Positions 1,375 to 39,173 of a stretch of 63,578 nt of DNA are shown here, in pieces. Within the stretch, counting starts at the first letter, position 1; each line of letters begins with the position of its first letter. The stretch comes from Spirochaetia bacterium (lineage in GTDB: Bacteria; Spirochaetota; Spirochaetia; CADAEX01), in the NCBI GenBank assembly GCA_017554185.1, contig JAFZIU010000009.1, positions 1 to 63,578 of the forward strand. Reading direction: 5' to 3'. A program made the position numbers and the translations under genes. A model generated the notes under the pieces. That model searched no databases, was not told the origin of the DNA, and saw only the letters and a list, made by a program, of their open reading frames with translations.

Positions 1375-2589
1375 ATGATACCTAAAAGCACTGTGTATAA
1401 CGCTCCCTATCCGAAAAGCTACGGCAGCGAGTTCACCCTGTTCGACCACGGAGAGGGCTGCTATATATTTGATGTGGAAGGAAAGAAGTATCTGGACCTG
1501 GGCTCCGGCATTGCGGTGAACACCCTTGGCTACGGCCGGGAAGACCTGGCAAAGGCAGCCTACGACCAGATGAAGAAGATCATCCACACCTCTAACCTCT
1601 ACACCTCGGAGGCAACTCTGCTGGTGGCAGACAAGCTTACATCATTCGGCAACTTTGCAGCAGTCCACTTCGGGAACAGCGGCACCGAGGCCAACGAGGC
1701 AGCCATCAAGTTTGCACGGCTTTATGCAAAGCGGAAGAAGGGGGGCGGACATCACAAGATCATAGCCTTTGAATCTGCATTCCACGGGCGCACCATGGGT
1801 GCCCTTTCCTGTACCTACAACCCGCACTACCGGGAGGACTGCGGGCCGCTGGTGCCTGGAGTCGAGTTCCTTCCATACAATGATGTGGAGACTTTGAAAA
1901 AGACTGTGGACGGCACCTACGCTGCCATCATAGTAGAAGTGATCCAGGGCGAAGGCGGTCTCAAGTGCATGACCAAGGAATTTGCCAAGGCACTTAACGA
2001 AGTGTGTGCACAGCAGGATGTGATCCTGATTGCCGACGAGGTTCAGACCGGCCTTACAAGAACCGGCTACCCATTTGCCTGCGGCCTTGTTGATCTGAAT
2101 CCAGATATCATCACCCTGGCCAAGCCTTTGGCCGGCGGTCTGCCCCTCTCTGCAACCCTCATACCAATGAAGGTGAACGAGATACTGCAGCCTGGTGACC
2201 ATGGTTCCACCTTCGGCGGAAACCCAGTCGCCTGTGCCGTTGCAAACCAGATGCTGGAAACCCTGTTCTTCCCGCCTTTCATCTTCGAAGTGCAGGCTAA
2301 GGGCGAGTATCTCAAGAAGAAAATAGAAGGACTCAAGGCACAGTTCGACTGTATCGGAGAACTGCGGGGTGCCGGCATGCTCCGGGGCTTCGAGGTCAAC
2401 ACACCGTCCGGTTACCAGGGAGAGCTTTCCAAGGACCTCATCGCCGAATGCAAGGCCAACGGCGTCCTTGTACTGCGGTCCGGAACCAATGTCATCCGCC
2501 TGGCCCCTCCGCTTGTCATAAGCGAGAAAGAGCTGGACGAGGGCTTTGATATTATTGCAAAATCTTTGAAAAATTTATTGAATAAATAA
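1375..2589 (+). CDS. argD: Acetylornithine aminotransferase (class III PLP)
   Basis: NSGTEANEAA, FHGRT, DEVQTG, LAKPLAGG, HGSTFGGNP motifs; arg cluster. Confidence 0.95.
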   Translation: MIPKSTVYNAPYPKSYGSEFTLFDHGEGCYIFDVEGKKYLDLGSGIAVNTLGYGREDLAKAAYDQMKKIIHTSNLYTSEATLLVADKLTSFGNFAAVHFGNSGTEANEAAIKFARLYAKRKKGGGHHKIIAFESAFHGRTMGALSCTYNPHYREDCGPLVPGVEFLPYNDVETLKKTVDGTYAAIIVEVIQGEGGLKCMTKEFAKALNEVCAQQDVILIADEVQTGLTRTGYPFACGLVDLNPDIITLAKPLAGGLPLSATLIPMKVNEILQPGDHGSTFGGNPVACAVANQMLETLFFPPFIFEVQAKGEYLKKKIEGLKAQFDCIGELRGAGMLRGFEVNTPSGYQGELSKDLIAECKANGVLVLRSGTNVIRLAPPLVISEKELDEGFDIIAKSLKNLLNK

Positions 2590-2600
2590 GGGAGATCATT

Positions 2601-3863
2601 ATGGCTAAGAAAATAGTACTTGCATATTCTGGTGGACTTGATACAACTGTCATCATCCCATGGCTTAAGGAAAATTACGATTACGATGTCATCGCTGTCT
2701 GCGTGGACGTGGGACAGGGGGACGACTGGGCTGCAATCAAGGCACGGGCCCTCAAGACAGGAGCTTCTGCATGCTACGTTGTCGATGCACGTCAGGAATA
2801 CATTGAAGAGTATGTTTGGCCGGCACTCAAGGCCAACTGTAAATACGAGGATCAGTACCTTCTGGGTACCTCCACTGCACGGCCTTTGATCGGAAAGATT
2901 CTGGTCGAGTATGCACGGCAGGAGGGCGCAGTTGCTATCTGTCACGGAGCTACCGGAAAAGGAAACGACCAGATTCGGTTCGAGCTGGCAATCAAGGCAT
3001 TTGCGCCGGACCTCAAGGTTATTGCCGCATGGCGCGATGACAAGTGGAACATGGACAGCCGCGACGCCGAGATCAAGTTCCTGGAGGACAGGGGTCTTGA
3101 GGTTCCGATGAAGAAGGACCAGTCCTACAGCCGCGACGAGAATATCTGGCACCTTTCCCACGAGGGACTTGAGCTTGAGAAGACCCAGAATGAGCCTAAC
3201 TACAAGCATATGCTGCAGAACACAGTATGCCCCGAGGAGGCTCCTGAGGCTGGCGAGTATGTGAAGATTGAGTTCGAGAAAGGTATTCCGGTAAGCGTGA
3301 ACGACAAGAAAATGAATGGACTCGAGATCATGCTGGAACTTAACAAAATCGGAGGAAGGAACGGCGTTGGCCTTGTGGATATCTGCGAGAACCGCTGTGT
3401 CGGCATGAAGAGCCGCGGTGTGTACGAGACTCCTGGTGGATCTATTCTCTATGCAGCACACGAGATGATGGATCACCTGTGCCTGGACCGGGACACCTAT
3501 CATTTCAAGCAGCAGATATCGCTGCGGATGAGCGAACTTATCTACGATGGCAAGTGGTTCACCCCGCTGATGGATGCATGCAAGGCATTTATCGACATGA
3601 CACAGAAGACCTGCACCGGATGGGTAAAGCTTAAGCTGTATAAGGGCTCTATCCGCGGCGCCGGCTCATGGTCAAAGTACAGCTTGTACAACGAGAGCAT
3701 CGCTTCCTTTACAACTGGCGAGCTTTATAACCATAAGGATGCCCAGGGCTTCATCACTCTGTTCGGACTGCCGCTCAAGGTGCGGGCTCTTATGGAGCAG
3801 CAGGTGGGCGAAGGGCAGGCAATACTGGAGAGCAAAAGCTTCAAGAAGCGGCCTACCGAGTAA
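2601..3863 (+). CDS. argG: Argininosuccinate synthase
   Basis: LAYSGGLDT, HGATGKGNDQ, ENRCVGMKSRGVYETPG motifs. Confidence 0.98.
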   Translation: MAKKIVLAYSGGLDTTVIIPWLKENYDYDVIAVCVDVGQGDDWAAIKARALKTGASACYVVDARQEYIEEYVWPALKANCKYEDQYLLGTSTARPLIGKILVEYARQEGAVAICHGATGKGNDQIRFELAIKAFAPDLKVIAAWRDDKWNMDSRDAEIKFLEDRGLEVPMKKDQSYSRDENIWHLSHEGLELEKTQNEPNYKHMLQNTVCPEEAPEAGEYVKIEFEKGIPVSVNDKKMNGLEIMLELNKIGGRNGVGLVDICENRCVGMKSRGVYETPGGSILYAAHEMMDHLCLDRDTYHFKQQISLRMSELIYDGKWFTPLMDACKAFIDMTQKTCTGWVKLKLYKGSIRGAGSWSKYSLYNESIASFTTGELYNHKDAQGFITLFGLPLKVRALMEQQVGEGQAILESKSFKKRPTE

Positions 3864-3875
3864 GCTTGCTTTTTG

Positions 3876-3905
3876 TTGACAGGTTCAGCAGAATCTGATT
3901 ATAAT
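3876..3905 (+). promoter_or_regulatory. Consensus sigma70 promoter with no downstream sense ORF
   Basis: TTGACA (3876-3881), 18-nt spacer, TATAAT (3900-3905); spacer contains TCAG/CTGA inverted repeat. Confidence 0.8.
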
Positions 3906-3911
3906 TAAATA

Positions 3912-4028
3912 TCACGAGCGGAAAGGCTACCGCCGGGTGCTGATTAATCAGCATGACTGATTGAGGAACGGCCGCCCTCAGATAATTTTTATACGCGGAA
4001 GACCGGGATATACCCGGTCTTTTGTTTT
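3912..4028 (+). ncRNA. Putative ~115-nt structured small RNA antisense to the 3' end of the PBECR-like gene
   Basis: Bounded by a consensus promoter and an intrinsic terminator; GC-rich stems GCGG/CCGC and TGAGG/CCTCA plus perfect palindrome TGCTGATTAATCAGCA (3938-3953); ends are estimated. Confidence 0.55.
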
Positions 4029-4493
4029 ATACAGGGATTTATGCAGAATAATCTGACCATCAATATCAGACAATTCTATTGCTGCTAGTCTATTCTTTTC
4101 GAACCTTTTTACAAATAAAAGAGAATCTCTGTTTTTACCGTTCGGTTTCTTTCTCGTATCCTTAATCACTTCATCTGGATAAGAAAAAACTTTCTGCAAA
4201 TCTGCATACTCGGCAACACCAACATCTTTGTGGCCATGATTTGCAATGTGATCAATAAAATAACCCTTGCTGCTATAAATGCGGTTATCAACTGCAGTAC
4301 CATCAAAGAAAGGAAGATAGCACAAGGGCAGAAACGCAATAGCTTCAAGAATATTACCAAATCTTTCTTCGCATTCAAGAAGACTCTTCCCTTCTGCCCA
4401 TTTTATATCTAAGGTATTGGATGCCCATTCTATAACTCGGTGCAGCATAACTTCAATCTCTTTATCCTTTTCACTTAAAATAAAAGCACTCAT
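3978..4493 (-). CDS. Putative PBECR-type (Barnase/EndoU/ColE5/RelE-like fold) nuclease or toxin
   Basis: 171 aa with RBS (GTAGGAG); pattern DHIANH...Y..LQ.V...PDEV..D...SLLFVKRF...IILHKSLY resembles PBECR families; recognised by eye only. Confidence 0.5.
   Translation of the reverse strand: MSAFILSEKDKEIEVMLHRVIEWASNTLDIKWAEGKSLLECEERFGNILEAIAFLPLCYLPFFDGTAVDNRIYSSKGYFIDHIANHGHKDVGVAEYADLQKVFSYPDEVIKDTRKKPNGKNRDSLLFVKRFEKNRLAAIELSDIDGQIILHKSLYKTKDRVYPGLPRIKII
3999..4028 (+). terminator. Intrinsic terminator embedded in the opposite-strand CDS
   Basis: AAGACCGGG-ATATA-CCCGGTCTT followed by TTGTTTT. Confidence 0.75.
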
Positions 4494-4515
4494 AGTAAAT
4501 CTCCTACCTGTATAG

Positions 4516-4564
4516 ACGCAAAAAAAATCAATTTTGCTTCAATTTTTGAGAAAAAAGTTTGAAA
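4516..4564. repeat. Conserved AT-rich element, copy 1 of 3
   Basis: ACGCAAAAAAAATCAATTTTGCTTCAATTTTTGAGAAAAAAGTTTGAAA; identical to 9169-9217. Confidence 0.95.
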
Positions 4565-4671
4565 TATTTTCATCTGTAGCATTATTTGCGACAGCAGATG
4601 AAATATGATATTATTTACATATGACACAGGTACTGGATTGTCTACAATAAAGGGGCAAGGGGAAAAGAGTT

Positions 4672-5676
4672 ATGGATAAAAAAGTTAAAATAACATTGTT
4701 GTCAACTATAAAAAGAGGAAGAAAGAGTACAAGATACTTAACAAAGTATAATAACAATTATGCCTCTGTTAAGTTGGATAATAATGAAAATTATTCCCGT
4801 GGAATGGAAATAGAAGTTTCAGAAAAGGAAATAAATGATAAGGAATTTAAAGAAGCTTGGGTAAAAGATATAAAATCTTGGGAAGATAAAAAAAGAAAGA
4901 TTCTAGAACATTTAAGCAAATATAAGAAAGAGAAAATAACAGAAACTGAAGGATATTGGAGAAATAAGGATGGGGATATAATTTTTTATCCCCATATCCT
5001 GCCAGATGATGAAGAAAAGAAAAATATTTTAGATTCTGCTTATAAGGCCTCAATTGAAAATCTTTACGATGAGAAAAAAAATAAAGGTAATAATGTTATT
5101 CATATAGGCTTTAAAAATCTGAATTCTTCCCAGGCATTTGCATTTAATTTTTTTAAGCCTATAATTGATGAAAATATATTCGATAAGTTATTATCAGATT
5201 CGCAAATTTCAACTATTGATGAATCAGATTTTGAGAAAAAAAATCCAGATAGAACTCAGTTCGATTTTTTCTTGCAATCTGGCAAGGTTAAATGTTGTTT
5301 TGAAGTAAAATATACAGAAAGTGATTTTGGCGCTGCTTCTCAGAATTCAGATTATTCAAACTACAAAGAAAAACTAAAAGAATTATTAAAAGAAAAAATA
5401 GAAAAAGAAGATTTCTTTGATGAATATCAATTGTGGAGAAATATTATTTTTGCTTTGGACGGTTATCAGGTCTTCTTTGTATTTCCTAAGTTTAGGGATG
5501 ATTTAGCAAAAAAAGTCGAAGACGCTAAAAATAAATGTAAAGATAATTTCAAAGATAATATTAAGATTCTCTATGTTAATGATTTTGTAGAAAAAATGAA
5601 AAATTCTGAAAACAAAAAATTACGAGATCATTATACAGAGTTTTCTAAGAAATACTTGGAAATACCAACAATCTGA
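4672..5676 (+). CDS. PGN_0703-family putative PD-(D/E)XK restriction-like endonuclease
   Basis: NLNSSQAFAFNFF and TQFDFF...FEVKYTESDFG motifs; strongly AT-rich. Confidence 0.65.
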   Translation: MDKKVKITLLSTIKRGRKSTRYLTKYNNNYASVKLDNNENYSRGMEIEVSEKEINDKEFKEAWVKDIKSWEDKKRKILEHLSKYKKEKITETEGYWRNKDGDIIFYPHILPDDEEKKNILDSAYKASIENLYDEKKNKGNNVIHIGFKNLNSSQAFAFNFFKPIIDENIFDKLLSDSQISTIDESDFEKKNPDRTQFDFFLQSGKVKCCFEVKYTESDFGAASQNSDYSNYKEKLKELLKEKIEKEDFFDEYQLWRNIIFALDGYQVFFVFPKFRDDLAKKVEDAKNKCKDNFKDNIKILYVNDFVEKMKNSENKKLRDHYTEFSKKYLEIPTI

Positions 5677-5957
5677 CCATTTGGGTTTTTATTTGCTTAA
5701 TTAATATAATATTCCACATTTCATTAGCGTTCCATCAACTATTTACCCTTGTTTGATACGATAAATAAAGCATTTGATTTTCTGATTTGCAAAAATCGAA
5801 AAAAATGCCGTTTTTGAGAAATTGTATAAAATCTTGTAATTAAATGAATTAGTAAAAAACTTTCGGTTAAAGTTATAGAATCTTTACAATTTTTAGCTGG
5901 TTTGCTATCTTGTCGCTTGCCTAAATGGGCGGAATTTTTTTATAGGAGAATCCGCAG

Positions 5958-7565
5958 TTGTTATTAGATGTAAATGACCTAGTGAGAAAAGAAAAAAAAG
6001 AGGGGATGGAAACCATCGTTTTTGCGTATGACGAACTGGACTATGCAATGAAGTTCTATGCCAAATGCCTTGAGGAAAATATCAAGCCTGTCATCGGGCA
6101 GAAGGTTATCATAGGCGGGCGCGAAGTGGTGCTCCTTTGCAAGGATGAAGAAGGGTATAGGATCCTATGCCGTCATTCTGCTGATGCAGAACGCTCATTT
6201 ACCGAGGAGGAGACTTCCCATTTTGTCTTTACAACCCTGGAAGCCGCCAATAAAGACAGCAAGCAGATTCCATATATTTTCCCTGAAGGCTATTTTACAA
6301 AAGAGAACTTTTTTAAGCGGCAGATTGATAATCTTCCTGATGTTCCCTTCCCGGCCGGCATTGGCAGTGCGGCTGAGTATCTCACCTCTCTTGTGGATAA
6401 GGGAATCAGATACAGGTATGGTGACCCGACTCCAGAGGTACAGCTGCGGATTCAGCAGGAACTTAATGCAATAATCTCAAATCATCTGGAGAAATATTTC
6501 CTTTTAATTTGGGAGATGACAGCCATGTGCCGTAAAAGGGGAATCCTGTATTCCACATCTTGCGATGACTCCAATGCTTCCATGATATGCTATGTGCTCA
6601 GAATCACTGATGTTGATCCCCTTAAGCACAACCTTTATTTTGAGTTCTTTATAGATCCCAGCAGAGATATTTATCCAAAAATAAATCTCTTTGTGTCAAA
6701 AAATATTATCCAGCATTTACGGAATGTTTATGGTGCTGATTGTGTGGCCTATAACATAGATAAAGAGGAATGGGAAAGGGAAGAGAAAGTTTCCGAATAT
6801 CGCCTTGGCCGTAATTTAATAATTGCAAAGAAGCCTATCTGTAACTATATTCCGGTTTATGAGAGCCCAAGAGGACTGGCCGGTTGGAATGACGGATATG
6901 CAGATGTCCCCTGCTTTAATATCCTGACAGAAGATTGCTGGGGAAAATACTCTTCAGTTGCTCATAGGACTTTCCACACAATATCATTCACAGACCGGAA
7001 AACTCTTAGCTATGTCAAAAAGAATAGGGCAAAGATTTATAGGGGTTATTGGTTCACCGACAAGGTGAAAAGACGGCTTAGAGATTTCAAGCTGAATTCC
7101 TTTGCTAATTTAGTTGTGGTGGAGGCTATTCTTAATATTTACGACGATGACCTTGCTTTGGAGCTTTTTGTAGACATTATTAACAGGCAGAAAAAAGGCT
7201 ATGAACCGCTGTTTGATGGATCTGATGAAATTCTTGGGGAGACCTATGGAAAACTCCTGTTCAAGGAGCAATTTATTCAGATTGTTCAACTGGTTACAGG
7301 GTGGAACATGGAGAAATCGGTTCTGTTCCTTCGCAATGCGGCCCGCAGAAAATATGATGAATTAAAGATACTGATGGATGAGTTCATGGAATGTGCTGTG
7401 AAGTTCGGGCTTTCTTGCGATGTCGCTAAAGAACTGTTCGCCACTTTACAGGATTCGGCAGTCTGGCTGGTATCCAAAGCTTGGTGTCTGGGACAGGCTA
7501 AGTATGTTTGGCAGGATTCATATCTGAAGGCACATTATCCCAAGGCGTTAATTTCGAAAAGGTGA
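5958..7565 (+). CDS. Truncated, catalytically degenerate DNA polymerase III alpha (DnaE) homologue
   Basis: DnaE landmarks ITDVDPLKHNLYFEFF, ETYG...EQ..Q and YLKAHYP; PDIDxD replaced by PKINLF and KxDxL by CFNIL; ends right after YLKAHYP. Confidence 0.8.
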   Translation: MLLDVNDLVRKEKKEGMETIVFAYDELDYAMKFYAKCLEENIKPVIGQKVIIGGREVVLLCKDEEGYRILCRHSADAERSFTEEETSHFVFTTLEAANKDSKQIPYIFPEGYFTKENFFKRQIDNLPDVPFPAGIGSAAEYLTSLVDKGIRYRYGDPTPEVQLRIQQELNAIISNHLEKYFLLIWEMTAMCRKRGILYSTSCDDSNASMICYVLRITDVDPLKHNLYFEFFIDPSRDIYPKINLFVSKNIIQHLRNVYGADCVAYNIDKEEWEREEKVSEYRLGRNLIIAKKPICNYIPVYESPRGLAGWNDGYADVPCFNILTEDCWGKYSSVAHRTFHTISFTDRKTLSYVKKNRAKIYRGYWFTDKVKRRLRDFKLNSFANLVVVEAILNIYDDDLALELFVDIINRQKKGYEPLFDGSDEILGETYGKLLFKEQFIQIVQLVTGWNMEKSVLFLRNAARRKYDELKILMDEFMECAVKFGLSCDVAKELFATLQDSAVWLVSKAWCLGQAKYVWQDSYLKAHYPKALISKR

Positions 7566-7580
7566 TAAGGAGAAGGTAAT

Positions 7581-7988
7581 ATGAGGAAAGGTTTTTCATT
7601 TGTTTTAGTTCTATTATTTTTGTTTGTTTCAGTCGGTATCTTTGCGCAAGGATACAACCCAAATGGTGTTTATCCCCCTTATGATATAGGGAAGTGCCAG
7701 AATATGTTGGGGCGGGCTCTGACTGCCAAGTTTGATCTGGCGCAGAATGGTCAGGATTATTCAGATGTTTCTGTTCAGAAAGCAATTCTTCTTACCGGAC
7801 TGACAAAGAAACAGGCTGAAGTGACCGTCAAATATTGTCCTAAGCTTATGAGATTTTGGAATGACGAAAAGCTTTGGTCCGATAAGGAAAGGCTTACCCC
7901 CGATATATTCTATAGATTGATGCTTAATGTGGATACAAACTCCACCATGATTTATGGGGATATGATTAATGATTTGTACAATAATTAG
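7581..7988 (+). CDS. Hypothetical exported protein
   Basis: RBS, N-terminal signal peptide ending GIFA-Q; no family recognised. Confidence 0.7.
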   Translation: MRKGFSFVLVLLFLFVSVGIFAQGYNPNGVYPPYDIGKCQNMLGRALTAKFDLAQNGQDYSDVSVQKAILLTGLTKKQAEVTVKYCPKLMRFWNDEKLWSDKERLTPDIFYRLMLNVDTNSTMIYGDMINDLYNN

Positions 7989-7998
7989 GAGATAATTT

Positions 7999-8481
7999 AT
8001 GGAATCGATAATTCTTTATTGCAAGAAATGTGATGGTGTTTTTGTTGGTGCAGAGGGGCAGGCTTCGATTTGTCCCACATGTAAAACAGAATTGGTTGAA
8101 ACTCATTGTTCAGAGGAAAAGTGGGATTCTTTAAACAAGGAGGAGAAGATTTCTCTAAAGCATCAATGGAAGACTCAGATTGTAGAACAGAAAACAGAGG
8201 TAAAAGCAGAACAAAGTGATGACTCTGGTTTGGATGATGTTGCTTTTTCAAAAAAGGTATTTGTCATAATAGCCTGTGCAGTTCTTCTCATTATTGGACT
8301 TCTCTGGGGTTATGGTTTTTGTCAGGCATATTCTGATATTAAAAATGAAGAGGGCTTAATTGTAATGGCTTATAGGATTAGTCATAAAGGGCTGAATCCG
8401 ATTTCCAAGAGCGGCTACAAAACATATTTGCATAACTACCCTAAACTTGAGCGACAGGTAAAGTCATTTAGCAGGTATTGA
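7999..8481 (+). CDS. Zinc-ribbon single-pass membrane protein
   Basis: CKKC...CPTC at N-terminus; hydrophobic helix VFVIIACAVLLIIGLLWGY. Confidence 0.7.
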   Translation: MESIILYCKKCDGVFVGAEGQASICPTCKTELVETHCSEEKWDSLNKEEKISLKHQWKTQIVEQKTEVKAEQSDDSGLDDVAFSKKVFVIIACAVLLIIGLLWGYGFCQAYSDIKNEEGLIVMAYRISHKGLNPISKSGYKTYLHNYPKLERQVKSFSRY

Positions 8482-8517
8482 GCAACTTACTCTGCAGGCT
8501 CAAAAAGCCTGTTGGTG

Positions 8518-8901
8518 TCAGAGCTTTGCCAGCAGGGCTTCCTGCAGCACTTGGGAGCAATTAATATGCTTGCGGTCTGCCAAGATTGATAGCCATCGGG
8601 GGAGCGATACATTTTTACGCACTGCCCGGGTATCTGTTGCTGCTCGGTATGCTAGGGTATCGGCTTTAATTAGCGAAAGCATATCATCCTTATTATGTTT
8701 TATCATTGCTTGGACTGTAGGAGTTGGAATCGATAGATTTTCATCTTCGGCAGTGCAGAGCCAGGCTGCCATTGCATCCGCCATCTGATCCATTGCATCT
8801 ATAAGATCTTTACCGGTAGTAATACAGCCATCAAGATCTGGAATTCTTGCGTATATTTTATTGCCTTTCTTTGTAAAAACTGCGGTGTATGTATATTTCA
8901 T
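8518..8901 (-). CDS. hicB: HicB antitoxin with C-terminal RHH
   Basis: IPDLDGCITTGKDL..A N-terminal domain and RKNVSLPRWL tail; coupled to hicA. Confidence 0.92.
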   Translation of the reverse strand: MKYTYTAVFTKKGNKIYARIPDLDGCITTGKDLIDAMDQMADAMAAWLCTAEDENLSIPTPTVQAMIKHNKDDMLSLIKADTLAYRAATDTRAVRKNVSLPRWLSILADRKHINCSQVLQEALLAKL

Positions 8902-9086
8902 CTTCTTTCTCCTAATTCTATTTCTTTCTCAATATAACGCAGATCATTCTTGTCAAAGCCATGTCGTTTAAGTGGTATTGCACGCCGTAGTTCTGCATTG
9001 AAGTAGATATCGTGGTTGCCGCCATGGCGTTTTAAAAAATATCCAGCCTTCTCCAGAAGCTTAATCGCTTTCCTATGAGCAATCAT
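8898..9086 (-). CDS. hicA: HicA mRNA interferase toxin
   Basis: 62 aa, GYFLKRHGGNHDIY..IPLKRH. Confidence 0.9.
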   Translation of the reverse strand: MIAHRKAIKLLEKAGYFLKRHGGNHDIYFNAELRRAIPLKRHGFDKNDLRYIEKEIELGERR

Positions 9087-9100
9087 AAGCAGCCTCCCTA

Positions 9101-9129
9101 AATTTACACAAAATTACACAACAAGTCAA
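9101..9129 (-). promoter_or_regulatory. hicAB promoter with tandem TGTGTAA operator-like repeats
   Basis: Minus strand TTGACT-17 nt-TAAATT; 10-bp tandem repeat AATTTACACA AAATTACACA. Confidence 0.6.
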
Positions 9130-9168
9130 CGACTTTTTAATTCTCTTTTCAAAGCTCCTACTTCTATT

Positions 9169-9217
9169 ACGCAAAAAAAATCAATTTTGCTTCAATTTTT
9201 GAGAAAAAAGTTTGAAA
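9169..9217. repeat. Conserved AT-rich element, copy 2 of 3
   Basis: 49 bp identical to 4516-4564, same orientation. Confidence 0.95.
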
Positions 9218-16287: not shown

Positions 16288-17032
16288 AGAAAAAATTTAT
16301 TCATTTCCAAAATCCATGAAGAATGTGACCACCCACTACTGTGCGGGCTGCGGTCATGGAATTGTACATAAACTGATTGCACAGATCATGGACGAGCTGG
16401 GAATCCAGGAGAAGACTCTTGTTATCGCTCCTGTAGGTTGCTCGGTTCTTGCATACAACTACCTTAAGGCCGACGGCCTTGAGGCTGCCCACGGAAGAGC
16501 ACCTGCTGTATCCACCGGACTCAAGAGAGTTCAGAAGGATAAAGTAGTCATCTGCTACCAGGGCGACGGCGACCTTCTGGCTATCGGAACAGCCGAGACT
16601 GTACATGCGGCAAACAGAGGCGAGCACATCACCGTAATCTTCATCAACAACGCTATCTACGGCATGACAGGCGGCCAGATGGCTCCTACCACAATGGAAG
16701 GACAGGTCACCAAGACCACTCCTTATGGAAGAAATCCACAGGATGTGGGCTGGCCTATCAGAGCATGCGAGCTCCTCAACACCCTTGAGGCTCCATACTA
16801 CATCGAGCGCTGCGCTGTATATGATGTAAAGCACATCAACCAGACCAAGAAAGCCATCAAGAAGGCTATACAGAACCAGATTGACGGAAAGGGCTACTCT
16901 TTCGTAGAAATCCTTTCCATGTGTCCTACAAACTGGGGCGTGGATCCGGTGAAGGCAGCTGAATGGGTACGGGACGTAATGGAGCCGTACTATCCGGTCA
17001 AGTGCTTCAGAGACGGAGGTGAGAAGAAATGA
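16280..17032 (+). CDS. 2-oxoacid:ferredoxin oxidoreductase beta (TPP-binding) subunit
   Basis: HYCAGCGHG, PVGCS, QGDGD...NNAIYGMTGGQ, CPTNW. Confidence 0.92.
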   Translation: MSEEKIYSFPKSMKNVTTHYCAGCGHGIVHKLIAQIMDELGIQEKTLVIAPVGCSVLAYNYLKADGLEAAHGRAPAVSTGLKRVQKDKVVICYQGDGDLLAIGTAETVHAANRGEHITVIFINNAIYGMTGGQMAPTTMEGQVTKTTPYGRNPQDVGWPIRACELLNTLEAPYYIERCAVYDVKHINQTKKAIKKAIQNQIDGKGYSFVEILSMCPTNWGVDPVKAAEWVRDVMEPYYPVKCFRDGGEKK

Positions 17033-17574
17033 CAAAAGAGCTTATTTTTGCCGGATTCGGCGGACAGGGCGTCATCCTCGCCGGAAAAATCCTGTGCATT
17101 GCAGCCATGAAAGAGGATAAGTGCGTATCCCACATCCCATCCTACGGTGCCGAGATGAGGGGCGGTACAGCAAACTGCAGCGTGGTGGTGGCAGACGAAG
17201 AGATTGCATCTCCTGTTGTAGAGCATCCGGACATCTGCATTGTCCTCAACAAGCCCTCCCTGGACAAGTTCGAGCCGCGGATGAAAGAGGGCGGTATACT
17301 TATATATAATACATCTTTAATTGAGAATAAGCCGAAACGCACCGATATTAAAGTATACGGCATTGACTGCAACCGGATTGCAGCAGAGAACGGCAGCGAG
17401 CGGGCAGGCAACATGGTTGCACTGGGCGCTCTGGTCAAGATTGTGCCATGGCTGTGCAGCGTGGACTCCTTTGAATTTGCCTTGGACCAGGCTATTTCTG
17501 CCCGGAACAAGAAGTTCAACGAGGTCAACCTTAAGGTCATTAAGGCAGGATACGACCTACCGCTGAACGCGTAG
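17029..17574 (+). CDS. 2-oxoacid:ferredoxin oxidoreductase gamma subunit
   Basis: AGFGGQGV, PSYGAEMRGG, NMVALGA. Confidence 0.93.
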   Translation: MTKELIFAGFGGQGVILAGKILCIAAMKEDKCVSHIPSYGAEMRGGTANCSVVVADEEIASPVVEHPDICIVLNKPSLDKFEPRMKEGGILIYNTSLIENKPKRTDIKVYGIDCNRIAAENGSERAGNMVALGALVKIVPWLCSVDSFEFALDQAISARNKKFNEVNLKVIKAGYDLPLNA

Positions 17575-17609
17575 AAGTTGTGTAATACTTTGGAATAAAG
17601 CGAAAGCAG

Positions 17610-17638
17610 AAGCCGGGGTCTTACATCCCGGCTTTTTT
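17610..17638 (+). terminator. Intrinsic terminator after the oxidoreductase operon
   Basis: AAGCCGGG-loop-CCCGGCTT followed by TTTT. Confidence 0.8.
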
Positions 17639-17664
17639 AGTATATCAGGTAAAGGAGAAACCAA

Positions 17665-18240
17665 ATGGACGAGAAAAACAAGATTGGACACAAGGTGGCA
17701 TTCATAAGAGAAAGCCGTGACCTTACAGTGGAAGATGTGTCCGAAAGAGCAAATCTGGCAGTGCAGACAATTACAGACATCGAGAACGGAAACCTTATTC
17801 CGGGACTTACACCGCTGATCAAGATTGCCAGAGTCCTAGGTGTCCGTTTGGGAACTTTCCTGGATGATGAGGAGAACATAGGCCCGGCCCTGACCCGGAA
17901 GAACGAGAAGACCGAGGTTACCCGGTTCTCGGACCGGAGCAATGCAAAGGCATCGGACCTGGACTTCTATTCACTGGCCCACAACAAGGCAGGGCGCCAC
18001 ATGGATCCGTTCATGATCGACGTGTTCCCCGATTCCCACAAGGATGTCCACCTTTCAACCCACGAGGGTGAAGAGTTCATCTATGTAATGAAAGGACAGA
18101 TTGAGGTTATCTACGGCAGGGAGAAGTATGAGCTTTCCGAAGGGGACAGCATCTACTACGACTCCATAGTTGCCCATCACCTCCACTCTGTAGGTACTGA
18201 GCCTGCCAAAATCCTGGCTGTTGTCTACACACCGTTCTAA
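17665..18240 (+). CDS. XRE-HTH + cupin transcriptional regulator (1)
   Basis: N-terminal HTH; HEGEEFIYV...GDSIYYDS..AH cupin. Confidence 0.93.
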   Translation: MDEKNKIGHKVAFIRESRDLTVEDVSERANLAVQTITDIENGNLIPGLTPLIKIARVLGVRLGTFLDDEENIGPALTRKNEKTEVTRFSDRSNAKASDLDFYSLAHNKAGRHMDPFMIDVFPDSHKDVHLSTHEGEEFIYVMKGQIEVIYGREKYELSEGDSIYYDSIVAHHLHSVGTEPAKILAVVYTPF

Positions 18241-18249
18241 GGAGAGACC

Positions 18250-19896
18250 ATGTTTGATATGACTTTGGGCGAAATGCTCAGATACCAGACTAAGAAAGAC
18301 CCGGAGCACGAATTCCTGGTCTACCCCGACCGGGACCTGCGGCTTACCTATGCCCAGTTCGACCACCGTGTGGACCTGCTGGCCAAGGGGCTTTTAGCCA
18401 TCGGAATAAAGAGGGGCGACCATATAGGCATGTGGGCAACTAATGTGCCCGACTGGCTTACCTTCCTCTTCTCCTGCGCCCGTATCGGTGCAGTCTTTGT
18501 AACAGTTAACACCATGTACAAGCTCCACGAGCTTGAATACCTTATGAAGCAGTCGGACATCACAACCCTGTGTCTTTCCAACGGCTACCGGGACAACGAC
18601 TACGTGGCAATGACCAAGACTCTGGTGCCCGAGATGGACTACTACGAGCGGGGACATCTTAAATCCAAGAACTTCCCCTTCCTCAAGAACGTGATCTACA
18701 TCGGACAGGAGAAGCACCGTGGCATGTTCTCCACCCAGGAGATAATGCTCTTAGGTCAGCATGTGTCGGACGAGGAGCTATTCGAGGCAGAGAAAGCTGT
18801 ACAGAAGGATGATGTGGCCAACATGCAGTACACATCGGGAACAACCGGCTTCCCCAAGGGAGTAATGCTTTCCCACTACAACATCCTTAACAACGGCTAC
18901 TACATCGGCGAGAGCATGAAATACACCTCCAAGGACCGTGTATGCCTGCCGGTGCCCCTCTACCACTGCTTCGGAATCGTACTGGGCGTAATGGCCATCT
19001 ACTCACATGGAGCAACCCATGTAATGCTTGAGCATTTCGATGCAAAGCAGGCCCTTATAGCAATAGACCACGAGAAGTGTACCTCCATCTACGGAGTGCC
19101 CACTATGTTCATAGCCGAGCTGAACCACCCGGACTTCAAGAAGTACGATATGTCCAGCCTCCGCACCGGAATCATGGCCGGCTCACAGTGCCCTGTGGAG
19201 CTTATGAAGCGGGTTGTGAACGAGATGAACATGAAGGATATAACCAGCGTCTACGGCCTTACCGAGTCCTCTCCCGGAATGACACAGAGCACCACCGAGG
19301 ATCCGCTGGAAAAGCGTGTGACCACAGTAGGGAAGGAACTTCCTTTCATCGATGTGAAAGTGCTTGACCCCGACACACTGGAGGAGTGTCCGCCTGAGGT
19401 TGTGGGTGAGCTCTGCTGCAAGGGCTACAACATCATGAAGGGCTACTACAAGATGCCGGAAGAGACAGCCAAGATCATCGACAAGAACGGCTATCTCCAC
19501 TCCGGAGACCTGGGCCTGAAGACCAAGGACGGCTACTTCAAGGTCACCGGCCGAATCAAGGATATGATCATCCGGGGCGGCGAGAACATCTACCCTATGG
19601 AGATAGAGGAGTTCCTCCGCACCATGCCCGAGATCAAGGATGTGCAGGTGGCTGGAATTGCAAGCAAGAAGTATGGCGAGGTTGTGGGTGCCTTCGTCAT
19701 CCTGTACCCCGGCAAGGTGCTTACCGAAGAGGATGTACGCAACTACTGCATCGGAAAGATATCCAGGTACAAGGTGCCTAAATATGTATTCTTCCTGGAT
19801 GACGAATTCCCGATGACAGGCAGCGGAAAGATACAGAAGTTCAAGCTTACACAGCTTGGAGCAGAACTCTTGAAGGAAAGGGGGATTGAACCATGA
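18250..19896 (+). CDS. AMP-binding acyl-CoA synthetase (1)
   Basis: [40 protein letters not shown]. Confidence 0.94.
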
Positions 19897-20453
19897 GCGC
19901 ATTAAGCGAAGAGATGAAGCAGGTGGCAGACCGTCTTAAGGGACTGCGTGAAATAATGGATGTATCTGTAGAGGAGGCAGCCGAAGTATGCCACATGACA
20001 CCGGAGGCTTATCAGAGGCTTGAGACCGGAACTGTAGATATCCCTGTAGGGGTTCTGCAGAGCATGGCAAAAAAGTATGGCTTTGAGCTCACCACACTTA
20101 TCTCCGGCGAAGAGCCGCACAGGCACAACTACTTTGTGACAAAGAAAGATCAGGGACTCTCCATAGAGAGGCGGCGGGACTACAAGTACCAGTCACTGGC
20201 CTATGGCTTTGCAAACCGGAAGGCAGACCCCTTCATGGTGGTGGCCCCGGCAGATGACGGAAGCGAAATTCATTTCAATTCCCATCCGGGGCAGGAGTTC
20301 AACTATATTCTCGAAGGCGACCTTAGACTGATTATTGACAAGAAGGAAGTCATTCTAGGGCCGGGGGATTCAATTTATTTTGATTCTACTCGGCCTCATG
20401 GAATGAGAGCTTTGCACGGAAAGCCTGCAAGGTTCCTTGCAATAATCTTCTAA
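19893..20453 (+). CDS. XRE-HTH + cupin regulator (2)
   Basis: HTH plus HPGQEFNY...[11 protein letters not shown]. Confidence 0.93.
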
Positions 20454-20465
20454 GGAGTTTTTTTA

Positions 20466-22124
20466 ATGCTATTGATAGAGAAATTTGTAAATAAAACTGA
20501 GTTTTCATCCTATGATGATTTCTTCAACAACTTCAGGCTGAATGTTCCTGCGAACTTCAACTTCACCTACGATGTCATGGATGTGCTTGCTGCCGAGACA
20601 CCCGATGCCCTGGCCATGCTTTGGATCGACGACCGGGGAAACCGGAGGGACTTCACCTTTGCCCAGATGAAGGAGAATGTGGACAAGACCGCCTCCTTCT
20701 TCAAGTCCCTTGGAATCGGCAAGGGGGACATGGTCATGCTTATCCTCCAGCGGCGCTACGAGTGGTGGTTCTCCATGCTGGCCCTGCACAAGATCGGTGC
20801 AGTCTGCATACCTGCAACCCACATGCTCACTGCCGAGGACATCATATTCAGGAACAATGCGGCCAAGATCAAGATGATTGTTGCTGTGGATGAGAACGAT
20901 ATTCCAAAGCATGTGGAAGAGGCTATGGCCCAGTCTCCTACTGTAAAGAATCTGGTTATTGTCAACACAGAGCGTGAGGGCTGGATCAGCTTTGACAAAG
21001 GGGTTGCAGAGGCTGCCCCATTTGACGGACCTAGAGTGACCGAGAACAGCGATGTCTCCCTTATCTACTTCACATCCGGAACCACAAGCCATCCTAAGAT
21101 GGTGGCCCACGACTACCTCTACCCGCTGGGACATATCACCACTGCCTACTTCTGGCAGAAGGTGCGCAAGGGAGGTCTCCATCTTACTGTGGCAGACACA
21201 GGCTGGGGCAAGGCAGTGTGGGGCAAGATGTATGGCCAGTGGATAAGCCAGGCCACAGTCTTTGTCTACGACTATCATGCCAAGTTCAAGGCTATCGACC
21301 TTATCGGCCTGATCGAGAAGTACCACATAACCACATTCTGCGCACCTCCTACCATCTACCGCTTCCTTATCCAGGAGGACCTTTCAGGCTACGACCTCTC
21401 TTCTCTGGTGCACTGCTCCACTGCAGGAGAGCCTCTGTCTGAAAACGTATTCAATAAGTGGAAGGCTATCACAGGACTGGGCATAACCGAGGGCTTCGGC
21501 CAGACCGAGACCACCCTCTCCTTCCTGAACTTCGACTCAAATTCCATCAAGCCGGGCTCCATCGGAAAGCCTTCGCCATACTACAACGCAGTAGTGCTGA
21601 ACAGCGAGAACCAGGAATGCGACGACGGCGAGGTGGGCGAGATTGCCTTCCCACTCAAGAACGGAAGATTCCCTGGACTTTTCAAGGAATATCTGTATGA
21701 TAAAGCTAAGACCGACAGTGTTGTCCGGGACGGCTACTACTTTACCGGCGACACCGCATGGCGGGACGAGGACGGCTTCTTCTGGTTCATGGGACGGAAC
21801 GACGACGTTATAAAGTGCTCCGGCTACCGGATCGGCACCTTCGAGGTGGAGAGCGTCCTTATGCAGCATCCTGCAGTAGTGGAGTGCGCAGTGACCGGTG
21901 CTCCGGACCCCATAAGAGGCCAGATCGTAAAGGCCACCATCGTGCTTGCAGCGGCATACCGCCCTGGCAGCGAAGAGCTGGTGAAAGAGATCCAGGCCTT
22001 TGTCAAGAAGACAACAGCGCCCTACAAGTACCCGAGGATCGTGGAGTTTGTGGATGAGCTGCCCAAGACCATAAGCGGCAAGATCATGCGCAAGAATATA
22101 AGGGAAAAGGATAACAAGAAATAA
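20466..22124 (+). CDS. Short/medium-chain acyl-CoA synthetase (2)
   Basis: FTSGTTSHPK, GFGQTE, TGD, PKTISGK. Confidence 0.93.
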   Translation: MLLIEKFVNKTEFSSYDDFFNNFRLNVPANFNFTYDVMDVLAAETPDALAMLWIDDRGNRRDFTFAQMKENVDKTASFFKSLGIGKGDMVMLILQRRYEWWFSMLALHKIGAVCIPATHMLTAEDIIFRNNAAKIKMIVAVDENDIPKHVEEAMAQSPTVKNLVIVNTEREGWISFDKGVAEAAPFDGPRVTENSDVSLIYFTSGTTSHPKMVAHDYLYPLGHITTAYFWQKVRKGGLHLTVADTGWGKAVWGKMYGQWISQATVFVYDYHAKFKAIDLIGLIEKYHITTFCAPPTIYRFLIQEDLSGYDLSSLVHCSTAGEPLSENVFNKWKAITGLGITEGFGQTETTLSFLNFDSNSIKPGSIGKPSPYYNAVVLNSENQECDDGEVGEIAFPLKNGRFPGLFKEYLYDKAKTDSVVRDGYYFTGDTAWRDEDGFFWFMGRNDDVIKCSGYRIGTFEVESVLMQHPAVVECAVTGAPDPIRGQIVKATIVLAAAYRPGSEELVKEIQAFVKKTTAPYKYPRIVEFVDELPKTISGKIMRKNIREKDNKK

Positions 22125-22133
22125 GGAGAATCT

Positions 22134-22691
22134 ATGGTAAGTGAACAGAACAAAGCTGTAGCGGCCCGTATACGGGAACTGCGCGACATTATGGAACTCT
22201 CTGAAGAAGAGGTGGCAGAGGTGTGCGGTGTGACTGTGGAGCGCTACCGGGAACTGGAATCAGGCAATACCGAAATTCCTATCAGCGTCATGTTCTGCCT
22301 GGGAAAGAAATACAACATCGACTTGAACACTTTCCTTTCCGGCGAAGATTCCCACAAAGTCTCCTACTTTGTAACCCGCAAGGATAAGGGAATTGTTGTA
22401 GACCGGCTTGCAGACTATCACTTTGAGTCCTTGGCCTATGGCTTTGCCAACCGGCTTGCAGACCCGTTCCTTGTCACTGTAAACCCTGGAGAGATTCCGG
22501 TGATTCATCCGACGACACACCCTGGACAGGAGTTCAACTATGTACTGGAAGGCTCGGTCCGTGTAATGGTGGGGGACAACTATGTGATCTTGAACGAAGG
22601 GGACTCCATCTACTTCGATTCATCACTGCCCCACGGACAGCAGAATGCAGATGACAGACGCATCCGTTTTTTGACATTTATACTACTTTGA
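22134..22691 (+). CDS. XRE-HTH + cupin regulator (3)
   Basis: Paralogue of 19893-20453. Confidence 0.93.
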   Translation: MVSEQNKAVAARIRELRDIMELSEEEVAEVCGVTVERYRELESGNTEIPISVMFCLGKKYNIDLNTFLSGEDSHKVSYFVTRKDKGIVVDRLADYHFESLAYGFANRLADPFLVTVNPGEIPVIHPTTHPGQEFNYVLEGSVRVMVGDNYVILNEGDSIYFDSSLPHGQQNADDRRIRFLTFILL

Positions 22692-22709
22692 TACAAGGAT
22701 TTTACAACA

Positions 22710-24425
22710 ATGGAAGAGGTTTTCTTACCGCGTACAGAATTTTCCTCGTATGAGGATTTTATCGAAAACTACACACTTGATATACCCGAGAACTTCAACT
22801 TTGCCTATGATGTCATGGATGCAATAGCTGCAAGAACTCCCGATGCCAGAGCCATGGTATGGACCAACGACGAGGGCGATGAATGCACCATCTCCTTCGG
22901 TGACATGAAAAAACGTTCAGACCGTGCGGCATCTTTCTTCATGGAGTGCGGCATAAAGCGTGGGGATATGGTTATGCTTATCCTCCAGCGGCGCTACGAG
23001 TTCTGGGTAAGCGTGATGGCCCTGCACAAGATCGGAGCTATCGCCATTCCGGCCACACACATGCTTACAGTGGAGGATCTGGTCTACCGGAACAACTTTG
23101 CAAAGATAAAGATGGTGATTGCGGTGAATGCACCCAGTGTAATAAAGAATATCACTGCATGTCTGCCAGAGTCGCCGACCCTCAAGAAGCTGGTCATGGT
23201 GAACGAATACGGCGTGGACAAGCCGGTTGCAGACCTTCCCGAGGGATGGATTGACTATGTGACAGGATGCAACAATGCAGCACCTTTCCCTGTGCTCAAA
23301 CGGGAAGATGTCTCCACCAACAGCGACTATATGCTGGGCTACTTCACATCCGGCACCACCAGCCATCCTAAGCTGGCAATACACGACTTCCTCTACCCGC
23401 TGGGCCACATAGTCACAGCCAAGTACTGGCAGCATGTCCAGAAAGGAGGTCTGCATCTGACTGTGGCAGACACCGGCTGGGCCAAGACCAGCTGGGGCCG
23501 GCTCTACGGCCAGTGGATCTGCGAGACAGCCCTCTTTGTATACGACTACCATTCCCGGTTCAAGCCGGTGGACCTGCTGGAGCAGGTGCAGAAGTACAGG
23601 ATAACCACATTCTGCGCACCTCCCACCATCTACCGCTTTCTTATCCACGAGGATATATCCGGGTACGACCTTTCATCCATAAAGCACTGCTCCACTGCAG
23701 GCGAGCCTCTCTCCGACGAGGTGTTCAACCGCTGGAAGGAGCTTACAGGCTTTGAGATCACCGAAGGTTTCGGCCAGACCGAGTCCACCGTATTCCTCTT
23801 CAACTTCGAGGGACAGAAGATCAAACCGGGCTCTGCAGGAAAGCCGGCCCCATACTACAACATCTGCCTCCTGAACGACGATCTTGAGGAGATGGGCACC
23901 GCAGTCAGCGGCCAGATATGCTTCAAGCTGGACAAGGAGAAATTCCCTGCAACCGGAGGGCGTTTCCCCGGTTTAGTATGTGAGTACTATGGAGAGCCTG
24001 ACAAGACCAGGGAAGTGTTCCACGACGGCTACTACTTTACCGGCGACACCGCATGGCGGGACGAGGACGGCTACTACTGGTTCATGGGGCGCTGCGACGA
24101 CGTAATCAAGTGTTCCGGCTACCGCATAGGCACCTTCGAGGTGGAGAGCGTGCTGGAGGGACATCCCGCAGTGCTGGAATGCGCTGTCACCGGCGCGCCG
24201 GATCCTATCCGGGGCCAGGTAGTAAAGGCCACCATAGTGCTTACAAAAGAGTACCGCCCCGGAACTCCGGAGCTGGTGAAGGAGATACAGAATTATGTGA
24301 AGCACACCACAGCTCCTTATAAGTATCCACGTATCGTGGAGTTTGTGGACGAGCTTCCCAAGACCATAAGCGGCAAGATCCGGCGCAACGTGATCAAGAG
24401 CCGCGACAAGGAGAAAGCACAGTAA
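22710..24425 (+). CDS. Short/medium-chain acyl-CoA synthetase (3)
   Basis: Close paralogue of 20466-22124 with the same motifs. Confidence 0.93.
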   Translation: MEEVFLPRTEFSSYEDFIENYTLDIPENFNFAYDVMDAIAARTPDARAMVWTNDEGDECTISFGDMKKRSDRAASFFMECGIKRGDMVMLILQRRYEFWVSVMALHKIGAIAIPATHMLTVEDLVYRNNFAKIKMVIAVNAPSVIKNITACLPESPTLKKLVMVNEYGVDKPVADLPEGWIDYVTGCNNAAPFPVLKREDVSTNSDYMLGYFTSGTTSHPKLAIHDFLYPLGHIVTAKYWQHVQKGGLHLTVADTGWAKTSWGRLYGQWICETALFVYDYHSRFKPVDLLEQVQKYRITTFCAPPTIYRFLIHEDISGYDLSSIKHCSTAGEPLSDEVFNRWKELTGFEITEGFGQTESTVFLFNFEGQKIKPGSAGKPAPYYNICLLNDDLEEMGTAVSGQICFKLDKEKFPATGGRFPGLVCEYYGEPDKTREVFHDGYYFTGDTAWRDEDGYYWFMGRCDDVIKCSGYRIGTFEVESVLEGHPAVLECAVTGAPDPIRGQVVKATIVLTKEYRPGTPELVKEIQNYVKHTTAPYKYPRIVEFVDELPKTISGKIRRNVIKSRDKEKAQ

Positions 24426-39089: not shown

Positions 39090-39173
39090 GCCCGAATGGT
39101 GAAATTGGCAGACACGCTAGATTCAGGTTCTAGTGGCTTCACGGCCATGGAGGTTCAAGTCCTCTTTCGGGCA
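39090..39173 (+). tRNA. tRNA-Leu(CAG)
   Basis: Acceptor GCCCGAA/TTCGGGC, anticodon stem CTAGA-TTCAGGT-TCTAG, long variable arm, GGTTCAAGT T-loop; CCA not encoded. Confidence 0.97.

Follow-up and report, generated by a model that had tools for sequence, protein, structure and literature searches.

A small RNA gene antisense to the 3' end of a solo PBECR3 RNase gene, and its possible role in control of the nuclease

What is transcribed from a perfect promoter that has no protein-coding gene to drive? The question is raised by a 63,578-nt stretch of DNA of a Spirochaetia bacterium (GenBank assembly GCA_017554185.1, contig JAFZIU010000009.1, positions 1 to 63,578, forward strand), hereafter called the window. 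A consensus promoter begins 12 nt downstream of the argG stop codon (at 3863) and faces the 3' end of a convergent gene encoding a solitary PBECR3-type RNase. A first-pass annotation, made from the sequence alone, had proposed that this promoter drives a small structured RNA antisense to the nuclease gene, and that the pair forms an RNA-antitoxin system. Below we describe why the small RNA gene is considered real, how it is tied to the PBECR3 family, and what its product may do.

The sequence features listed in the first-pass annotation were all present, with coordinates off by 1 nt at most (Table 1). The promoter matches the sigma-70 consensus at 12 of 12 positions and is the only such match between 3000 and 6000, and no plus-strand open reading frame (ORF) of at least 40 amino acids (aa) starts downstream of it before 4230. 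Beyond the promoter lie three hairpins, P1 to P3. The annotated 16-bp palindrome, TGCTGATTAATCAGCA, was located at 3938-3953, and the annotated UGAGG/CCUCA stem, with loop AACGGCCGC, is P3, whose 3' arm covers the complement of the PBECR3 stop codon (3978-3980). A 9-bp terminator hairpin follows, with arms AAGACCGGG/CCCGGTCTT and then TTTTGTTTT to 4028; it is encoded within the RNase codons KTKDRVYPGL, the hairpin itself lying within KDRVYPGL, inside the last codons of the opposite gene as had been noted. The hairpin was not listed by the consensus scanner; it was read from the sequence and is paired in the minimum free energy structure given by RNAfold. As hairpin plus U-tract it makes a terminator on the plus strand only. 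The segment 3912-4032 folds with -43.7 kcal/mol (z = -4.4), a value equaled by none of 200 shuffled sequences. The predicted RNA, with its own promoter and terminator, would thus be about 118 nt long (from about 3912 to about 4028) and would overlap some 51 nt of the RNase coding sequence (CDS) together with the whole 3' untranslated region (UTR).

Copies of the locus were traced from protein homologues of about 80% identity to their contigs, and a metagenome scan with the P1 20-mer added more; two of the 12 scan matches (L098 and L105) were chance matches, and a scan of viral contigs with a 20-mer from P1 gave no match. At least six distinct variants are represented (window/L104, L088, L089-L091, L092, L099 and L100/L106/L093). 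Homologues do carry the flanking RNA motif: it was found at every PBECR3 gene of about 80% identity with enough flanking sequence (L088, L089-L091, L092, L099, L100 and L104). Homology among variants starts exactly at the -35 hexamer and stops about 85 nt upstream of the RNase ATG, near 4580 in the window. Past these borders the flanks are unrelated (at least six of them, with argG, a glmS gene, a helix-turn-helix (HTH) gene and others), and comparison of the locus variants revealed no protein-coding neighbor common to the cassettes. Judged by these borders, two genes make up a mobile cassette some 700 bp long (3876 to about 4580), in which the RNA is inherited as a unit with the PBECR3 gene and is not linked to argG. 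The RNA also occurs without its partner. At L095 (1977-2211) it is accompanied by the last 22 or so codons of the RNase gene, the rest of which is replaced by unrelated AT-rich sequence, and by analogy this copy behaves as orphan antitoxins do. Isolated or decayed copies were likewise detected at L096, L097, L102 and L103.

Two peculiarities of individual copies deserve mention. In L102 (region 1922-4070), roughly 300 nt separate the copy from a tyrosine-recombinase-like ORF of 594 aa that precedes it; the copy is also beside a weak tRNA-like match (1715-1783), with no PBECR3 domain upstream and no recognizable antisense promoter. In L089-L091, the cassette is preceded by a homologue of a 160-aa ORF found at 7999-8481 in the window, and then by about 35 nt that resemble the 3' end of argG (…RPTE*) and the spacer before the -35 hexamer (window 3840-3875). 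This flank looks like a rearrangement, or like a junction between the far end of the island that adjoins the cassette in the window and its argG-proximal end.

The pattern of divergence among cassette variants is uneven. Synonymous sites of the RNase CDS are saturated (synonymous divergence, pS, 0.71) while non-synonymous divergence (pN) is 0.11, with dN/dS around 0.05; hence the protein is under strong purifying selection and the lineages are old. Over the same distance, the non-coding part of the RNA (3906-3977) shows 93% mean pairwise identity. The 55 nt of CDS that lie under the terminator are 95% identical, and pS in the last 18 codons drops to 0.14, compared with 0.71 in the rest of the gene. 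Both promoter hexamers are invariant in all cassette variants, whereas identity is down to 52% in the 18-nt spacer that separates them and to 51% upstream of the -35; the block upstream of the RNase gene (4494-4580) is 58% identical, and identity is 25% beyond it. Hexamers, body and terminator conserved over a saturated background are the footprint of a functional promoter, a functional RNA and a functional terminator. By this footprint, we regard the small RNA gene as genuine and maintained by selection.

To what extent is the conserved unit a folded RNA, and on which strand? Thirteen distinct sequences align with a common architecture: P1 (GCGG/CCGC, loop AAAGGCUA), a variable P2, an invariant linker CAUGACUGAUUG and P3 (UGNGG/CCNCA). 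In the MAFFT alignment of these 13 sequences, 93.2% of the cells at paired positions are paired, compared with 82.3% in shuffles, and the covariation score is 0.388 versus 0.137, a value reached by none of 500 shuffles and far from slid controls (0.093 at most). When L110 and L111 are added, the paired cells amount to 97.5%, 10 of 16 pairs show double changes, none of 500 shuffles matches the alignment on any of five measures, and slid controls stay at or below 0.10; this 15-sequence alignment is model-fitted and leans toward the model structure. The sample holds about 15 distinct RNAs, many of which come from the scan that demanded the exact P1 20-mer and are biased toward an invariant P1. 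The loci reached through the protein (L088-L094 and L107-L112) do not share that bias, and they are in accord with the others.

P2 can differ in its entire sequence and still be paired; at one position of P3, G-C, A-U and U-A pairs are all found; and P1 shows compensatory changes from G-C to A-U in L110 and L111. The palindrome is helix P2, with a freely varying sequence. A repeated operator was rejected, as only two half-matches occur in the window (43594 and 61594), which is chance level (three or more matches in three of 100 shuffles). One element of the first-pass annotation is not supported, namely a pseudoknot in which the P3 loop pairs with the 5' GCGG: the latter is the 5' arm of P1, and no covariation supports any loop pairing. 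As to the strand, the cells that depart from Watson-Crick pairing are 18 G·U when read on the plus strand of the window and one A·C, an excess indicating that the fold belongs to the strand antisense to the RNase. In the same direction, the terminator stem of L094 and L107 stays paired through G·U pairs that are possible only on the plus strand. A covariance model of 72 positions, R1, was built; in the window it has a single match (Table 1). Searches of Rfam 15 with cmscan yielded only subthreshold chance matches in 3500-5000 at E ≤10, and only tRNAs in five homologous loci at E ≤1.

Because the RNA gene follows argG, the last gene of an arginine operon, the simplest suspicion was that the hairpin is just the terminator of that operon. 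The window is from a Treponema of the gut or rumen, and relatives of its argG at 78-91% aa identity belong nearly all to Treponema or to Spirochaetia metagenome-assembled genomes (MAGs). No copy of the RNA element was found by blastn or by R1 in 80 Treponema argG loci, and the 20 downstream flanks that were also read directly contain argH, ordinary terminators or unrelated sequence. As these relatives lack the RNA, the cassette also follows glmS and other genes, and no plus-strand ORF lies downstream, an arg-operon leader, terminator or riboswitch was rejected, and the RNA is more than an operon terminator. Five other Treponema loci (L010, L012, L014, L025 and L030) have G+C-rich, hairpin-forming, repeat-like sequences 3' of argG, which are unrelated to the RNA.

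The protein encoded opposite the RNA was annotated at first as a PBECR-like nuclease, and this assignment is borne out by the Pfam profile PBECR3 (score 38.3 bits, cut-off 30; E = 1.4e-9; residues 70-159). A phmmer search retrieved 163 relatives, most of them within polyvalent proteins, and the similarity extends over residues 10-169, to domains contained in proteins as long as 7297 aa. In one of these, P0015 (3802 aa), 16 separate stretches match residues 92-135 of the query, and it is apparently a giant protein with a repeated PBECR3 subsegment. A tblastn search with the PBECR3 protein against phage and plasmid collections gave no match. The described PBECR and colicin-like BECR RNases combine a histidine in a helix with His, Ser or Thr in the last strand (PMC5512222; bioRxiv 10.64898/2026.08.28.747851). 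Candidate counterparts here are H82, in a DHxxNH motif of helix 76-86, and H151-K152-S153, in strand 148-156, all of them invariant or at least 90% conserved. Family membership rests on the profile match and on these conserved residues. An AlphaFold model computed from a 24-sequence alignment (pLDDT 89.6) has an N-terminal helical part, helix 76-86 with D81-H82-x-x-N85, and strands 108-112, 124-130, 134-141 and 148-156, the last of which carries H151-K152-S153. Structure matches in BFVD are to phage proteins named 'Nuclease' and to PolyVal proteins, with E around 1e-3. As to the proposed BECR fold, the Pfam match and the helix-plus-four-strand topology agree with it, while a Foldseek search of the PDB gave no significant match (RelE was the best at E = 0.18, and HigB2 ranked lower). 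The protein is soluble and is not a small hydrophobic peptide, the usual kind of type I toxin; among such toxins, the exceptions SymE and RalR alone are similar to it.

On the RNase strand, the sequence of the RNA body has homologues that are translated in frame: they form the C-terminal tail of PBECR3 domains within polyvalent proteins of phages or mobile elements. The tail (…DRVYPGLPR(V/I)-x-SGGG(R/V)SPIS(H/R)-variable-PGGSLSARD) is translated in polyvalent or phage-like proteins (P0008-P0016 and P0087) and in short stand-alone proteins. It is out of frame in the window family, owing to a 7-nt indel and a TGA stop. In-frame versions still keep the nucleotide element: between the window and L094 the domain has a pS of 0.78, yet no difference is found at any of the 18 third-codon positions that flank the variable hairpin. 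The element is kept at 42-63% protein identity in L107 (Kiritimatiellae, PBECR3 followed by ART-PolyVal), L108 (Termitinemataceae, stand-alone) and L109 (a phage-like cluster with DarA-N, PBECR3 and SNF2). At 34% protein identity, R1 still finds it on the antisense strand of L110 (phage-like) and of L111/L112 (Bacteroidia), with 45-56 bits and E values of 5e-10 to 1.5e-12 that are rough, as the model was quickly calibrated. In polyvalent ORFs the RNA sits mid-gene, and across phyla it co-occurs strictly with one PBECR3 subfamily.

A TAA triplet in the P2 loop was observed both in the window (3944-3947, +1 frame) and in L111 (about 1700, in frame), with the ancestral tail readable past it (…PGGSLSARD / …ASALSALN). 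The two look like independent truncations of a translated tail that left the RNA intact. A programmed +1 frameshift or read-through into the tail was considered and discarded: L092, L099 and L100 have an open +1 frame, but this frame is not conserved, as it contains the TAA in the window and is affected by a 1-nt deletion in L088 and L089.

Homology to coding sequence admits a trivial explanation, namely that the segment is a functionless, decaying relic of a polyvalent tail, lying beside an arg-operon terminator and a chance promoter. The stop codon or frameshift that breaks the tail in the window family would fit such a history. A relic, however, should diverge no more slowly than synonymous sites do, and the segment is 93% identical where these are saturated. 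Compensatory changes, invariant hexamers and a suppressed synonymous rate under the terminator are not expected of it either, nor is the absence of the element downstream of argG in relatives, and the saturated divergence of the CDS excludes a very recent copying of all variants. We find this explanation hardly credible.

The antisense promoter can be followed into the distant homologues. TTGACN, a spacer of 16-18 nt and a -10-like hexamer are found at the homologous place in 11 or 12 of 14 sequences, against a background of 0.7% per 60-nt window. The reading frame in which TTGAC is embedded differs (GTC-AAG in L107 and L109, AG-TCA-A in L094), and in L096, L097 and L108 it lies in non-coding DNA. 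L110 has TACTTTTG at the antisense promoter position. In the Bacteroidia locus, a TTTG-N19-TACCTTTG arrangement replaces the sigma-70-type promoter. Bacteroidetes sigma-A promoters have TTTG at -33 and TAnnTTTG at -7, and we take the Bacteroidia sequence to be of this type. On these comparisons, the type of antisense promoter tracks the phylum of the host. That promoter function is conserved despite the switch in type argues strongly that selection acts on the transcription of this strand. Persistence of both antisense structure and promoter in coding sequence across phyla argues that the RNA is a partner of PBECR3 throughout the family, as opposed to a peculiarity of one locus.

One may still ask whether the conserved nucleotides act as DNA, for instance as a recombination hotspot that shuffles PBECR3 modules, transcription being incidental. 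Polyvalent proteins do show extreme domain shuffling (PMC5512222), the replacement of the RNase gene in L095 ends at a breakpoint immediately before the element, and the isolated L102 copy lies near a tyrosine-recombinase-like ORF. Yet the 18-to-1 asymmetry in G·U pairs indicates a single-stranded fold on one strand, the variable hairpin goes on pairing while its sequence changes completely, and the promoter is kept at the right distance while its type switches with the host phylum. A DNA-level site is in our opinion very unlikely.

What, then, would the RNA do? Our preferred interpretation, in which we place about half of our confidence, is that it is an antitoxin or negative regulator of the RNase that acts by 3' antisense pairing. 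The minus strand would encode a solo PBECR3 endoRNase, a domain otherwise delivered by phages and conjugative elements within giant polyvalent proteins. The RNA would be made in excess from its strong promoter and, in the window, also by argG read-through, which would enter the antisense RNA gene. With full complementarity to the RNase mRNA over its 3' end and 3' UTR, it would form a duplex leading to mRNA cleavage and decay, so that the RNase would not be made while the RNA is present. Such logic would be that of the 3'-overlapping type I systems txpA/RatA, bsrG/SR4 and yonT/SR6. A convergent strong promoter, 3' complementarity, a compact mobile unit without a protein partner and an orphan RNA together make antitoxin action by 3' pairing the best single explanation.

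Several observations weigh against it:

(i). RNA transcription, protein toxicity and repression by base pairing are all steps that we infer from sequence comparison, and to the lack of a significant PDB match is added the fact that a 171-aa soluble enzyme is unlike typical type I toxins.

(ii). Complementarity between the RNA and the ribosome-binding site (RBS) or 5' UTR of the RNase gene is no better than in shuffles (z ≥0). Trans pairing with the RBS was accordingly dropped, and repression would have to act from the 3' end only.

(iii). No variation is seen in the loops or in the 12-nt linker, even in copies that leave them non-coding. A cis-antisense RNA needs no such conservation, because any mutation stays complementary; invariance of this kind points instead to recognition by a trans factor and favors direct contact between RNA and protein.

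(iv). The need for an antitoxin is less obvious in polyvalent genes.

The third point leads to the most serious competitor, according to which the RNA neutralizes or serves the RNase by direct contact, as inhibitor, pseudo-substrate or decoy, in a manner resembling type III systems, and the antisense overlap is a by-product. Little or no variation is found in P1 and its loop, in the linker CAUGACUGAUUG and in most of the P3 loop despite saturated synonymous sites, also in the window family, where they are untranslated, and cis pairing needs none of this. P2 alone varies freely, provided that its pairing is kept, a pattern typical of recognition surfaces held by a spacer helix; strict co-occurrence with one PBECR3 subfamily across phyla is also in its favor. 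On the other side, binding of the RNase by the RNA is a proposal drawn from sequence, the invariance in polyvalent genes is partly explicable by the double constraint of protein and RNA, and the locus has neither a tandem-repeat array (Tandem Repeats Finder found no repeats in 3700-4800) nor an RNA upstream on the same strand. We consider direct contact rather unlikely, though worth keeping in mind. A bolder version, to which we assign a somewhat low probability, would make the RNA an ancient, cross-phylum 'RNA immunity' partner of one PBECR3 lineage, recognized directly as inhibitor or pseudo-substrate. If so, the peptide tail GGxSPIS...PGGSLSARD would exist mainly because the opposite strand must fold and carry a promoter; in other words, RNA structure would dictate protein sequence.

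A real antisense or small RNA need not be an antitoxin, and might tune when or how the mRNAs of polyvalent effectors are made or processed, shield the RNase gene from convergent read-through coming from the housekeeping gene upstream, or act in trans on targets in the host. The RNA is co-directional with a known upstream gene in the window, L104, L099, L100 and L111 (argG, glmS, an HTH gene and argD), its terminator would stop read-through of those genes, and it lies mid-gene in polyvalent ORFs. Insulation, however, needs a terminator only, and neither a conserved promoter nor a three-helix body; no candidate trans target was identified, and the strict association with PBECR3 suggests that the function concerns this domain. 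Such roles seem to us quite improbable.

How does the locus compare with known systems? The txpA/RatA, bsrG/SR4 and yonT/SR6 modules of Bacillus subtilis likewise have a cis RNA of about 100 nt, convergent and lying over the 3' end of the toxin mRNA, a strong RNA promoter, and a compact two-gene layout in mobile or island DNA (PMC5848175, PMC6562991, PMC4147584). Their toxins are membrane peptides of fewer than 60 aa, in contrast with a 171-aa soluble protein predicted to be a BECR-type RNase, and their RNAs are neither sequence-invariant structured RNAs found across phyla nor overlapped by translated sequence of a multidomain protein, as the present one is. Nuclease toxins kept in check by a small RNA are known in Escherichia coli, SymE/SymR and RalR/RalA (PMC4041452, PMC4147584), and provide a precedent for an RNA, not a protein, restraining a nuclease as proposed here. 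SymR, however, covers the 5' end and RBS of the toxin mRNA instead of its 3' end; RalA is trans-encoded, with 16 nt of complementarity, and Hfq-dependent, whereas the present RNA is cis-encoded; the folds of SymE (AbrB-like) and RalR (a DNase) are unrelated to BECR, and neither RNA has a conserved three-helix architecture. The type III systems ToxIN, CptIN and TenpIN also pair an endoRNase with a structured RNA and lack a protein antitoxin. Their antitoxins are tandem repeats located upstream on the same strand and processed by the toxin, while a single convergent unit lies downstream here, and with no repeats and a convergent orientation this is not a canonical type III locus. ToxN, moreover, has a Kid/MazF-like fold, not BECR.

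With regard to the polyvalent PBECR3 domains (Iyer et al. 2017, PMC5512222; PF18812), the solo protein keeps the predicted catalytic configuration of His and Ser/Thr. BECR toxins with a known neutralizer use immunity proteins or antitoxin proteins (bioRxiv 10.64898/2026.08.28.747851). Among the papers that could be searched, none connects an antisense or antitoxin RNA with PBECR or with polyvalent proteins, and none describes an RNA partner, antisense promoter or nucleotide-level element for PBECR3 domains. With an RNA that matches no Rfam family, the locus would be a type I-like, RNA-controlled toxin module, with the additional property that the RNA gene appears to be dual-coding in PBECR3 tails across phyla: about 75 nt would be a translated tail on one strand and a folded RNA on the other, and about 40 nt would then carry the RNA promoter.

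BECR-fold RNases are among the commonest toxins of bacterial conflict systems. If our interpretation is right, a mode of control based on RNA would be added for enzymes whose described neutralizers are all proteins, and experiments would gain a first handle on the way in which PBECR domains, known so far only from prediction, are made safe for the cell that encodes them. The R1 model is ready for use on genome and metatranscriptome collections, and the cassette, at about 700 bp, is of a convenient size to assay directly for toxicity, rescue and phage defense.

Table 1. Positions of the RNA gene, the RNase gene and their neighbors in the window.
Feature	Position	Strand	Remarks
Antisense RNA promoter	3876-3905	+	TTGACA 3876-3881, 18-nt spacer, TATAAT 3900-3905
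Structured RNA body, three hairpins	3912-3983	+	single R1 match in the window, 99.3 bits
P1	3918-3921 with 3930-3933	+	GCGG/CCGC, loop AAAGGCUA
P2 (variable hairpin; the 16-bp palindrome)	3937-3943 with 3948-3954	+	
Single-stranded linker CAUGACUGAUUG	between P2 and P3	+	first and last bases shared with the closing pairs of P2 and P3
P3	3962-3966 with 3976-3980	+	UGAGG/CCUCA stem, loop AACGGCCGC
Intrinsic terminator	3999-4028	+	9-bp stem 3999-4007 with 4013-4021, loop AUAUA, then UUUUGUUUU
Stand-alone PBECR3 protein, 171 aa	3978-4493	-	predicted metal-independent endoRNase, putative toxin; Pfam PF18812
RNase 5' region	4494-4580	-	Shine-Dalgarno AGGAGA (complement of 4500-4505), conserved block TTTCAAAC...GAAATTGAAGCAAAA
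argG	2601-3863	+	last gene of the argR-argCBDG operon (order argR-argC-argB-argD-argG); Pfam Arginosuc_synth; context only
REase-ARP / PD-(D/E)XK nuclease	4672-5676		low-G+C island
Truncated DnaE-like ORF, 535 aa	5958-7565		low-G+C island; PHP, pol III alpha and finger fragments
hicB/hicA	8518-9086		low-G+C island

No consensus promoter is evident in the 5' region of the RNase gene (4494-4580). A second arginine context was noticed in a Bacteroidia MAG (L111/L112, 1225-1830), where a stand-alone PBECR3 gene (34% identity) and its RNA are convergent to the last gene of an arginine operon. The order facing PBECR3 is argG-argC-argD there and argCBDG in the window, and the two therefore do not derive from one transferred block. 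Arginine operons make up two of about nine distinct cassette contexts. Colicin D, a BECR toxin whose active site resembles the PBECR type, cleaves tRNA-Arg. A mere speculation, from this likeness and from the occurrence of such contexts in two phyla, is that control of the RNase might be linked to arginine supply.

From about 4030 onward, G+C content falls from about 52% to 27-38%, and a variable low-G+C island (27-40%) adjoins the cassette (4494-9200). Besides the genes listed in Table 1, it holds two ORFs of unknown nature. Its content differs between strain variants: L104 has a metallo-beta-lactamase (MBL)-fold protein and another ORF, and the counterpart in L088 contains an N6-methyltransferase/specificity fusion, an HTH gene, hicAB and a flavodoxin gene. 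PADLOC, which uses hidden Markov models of known anti-phage defenses, gave no match for the PBECR3 protein or for four neighboring island proteins. The sole tRNA gene of the window is at 39090. Farther away, on the plus strand (17029-24425), three successive pairs, each made of an ORF of about 185 aa and one of about 550-570 aa, look like a tandemly duplicated gene pair, and an extra ORF of about 181 aa (17029-17574) precedes them.

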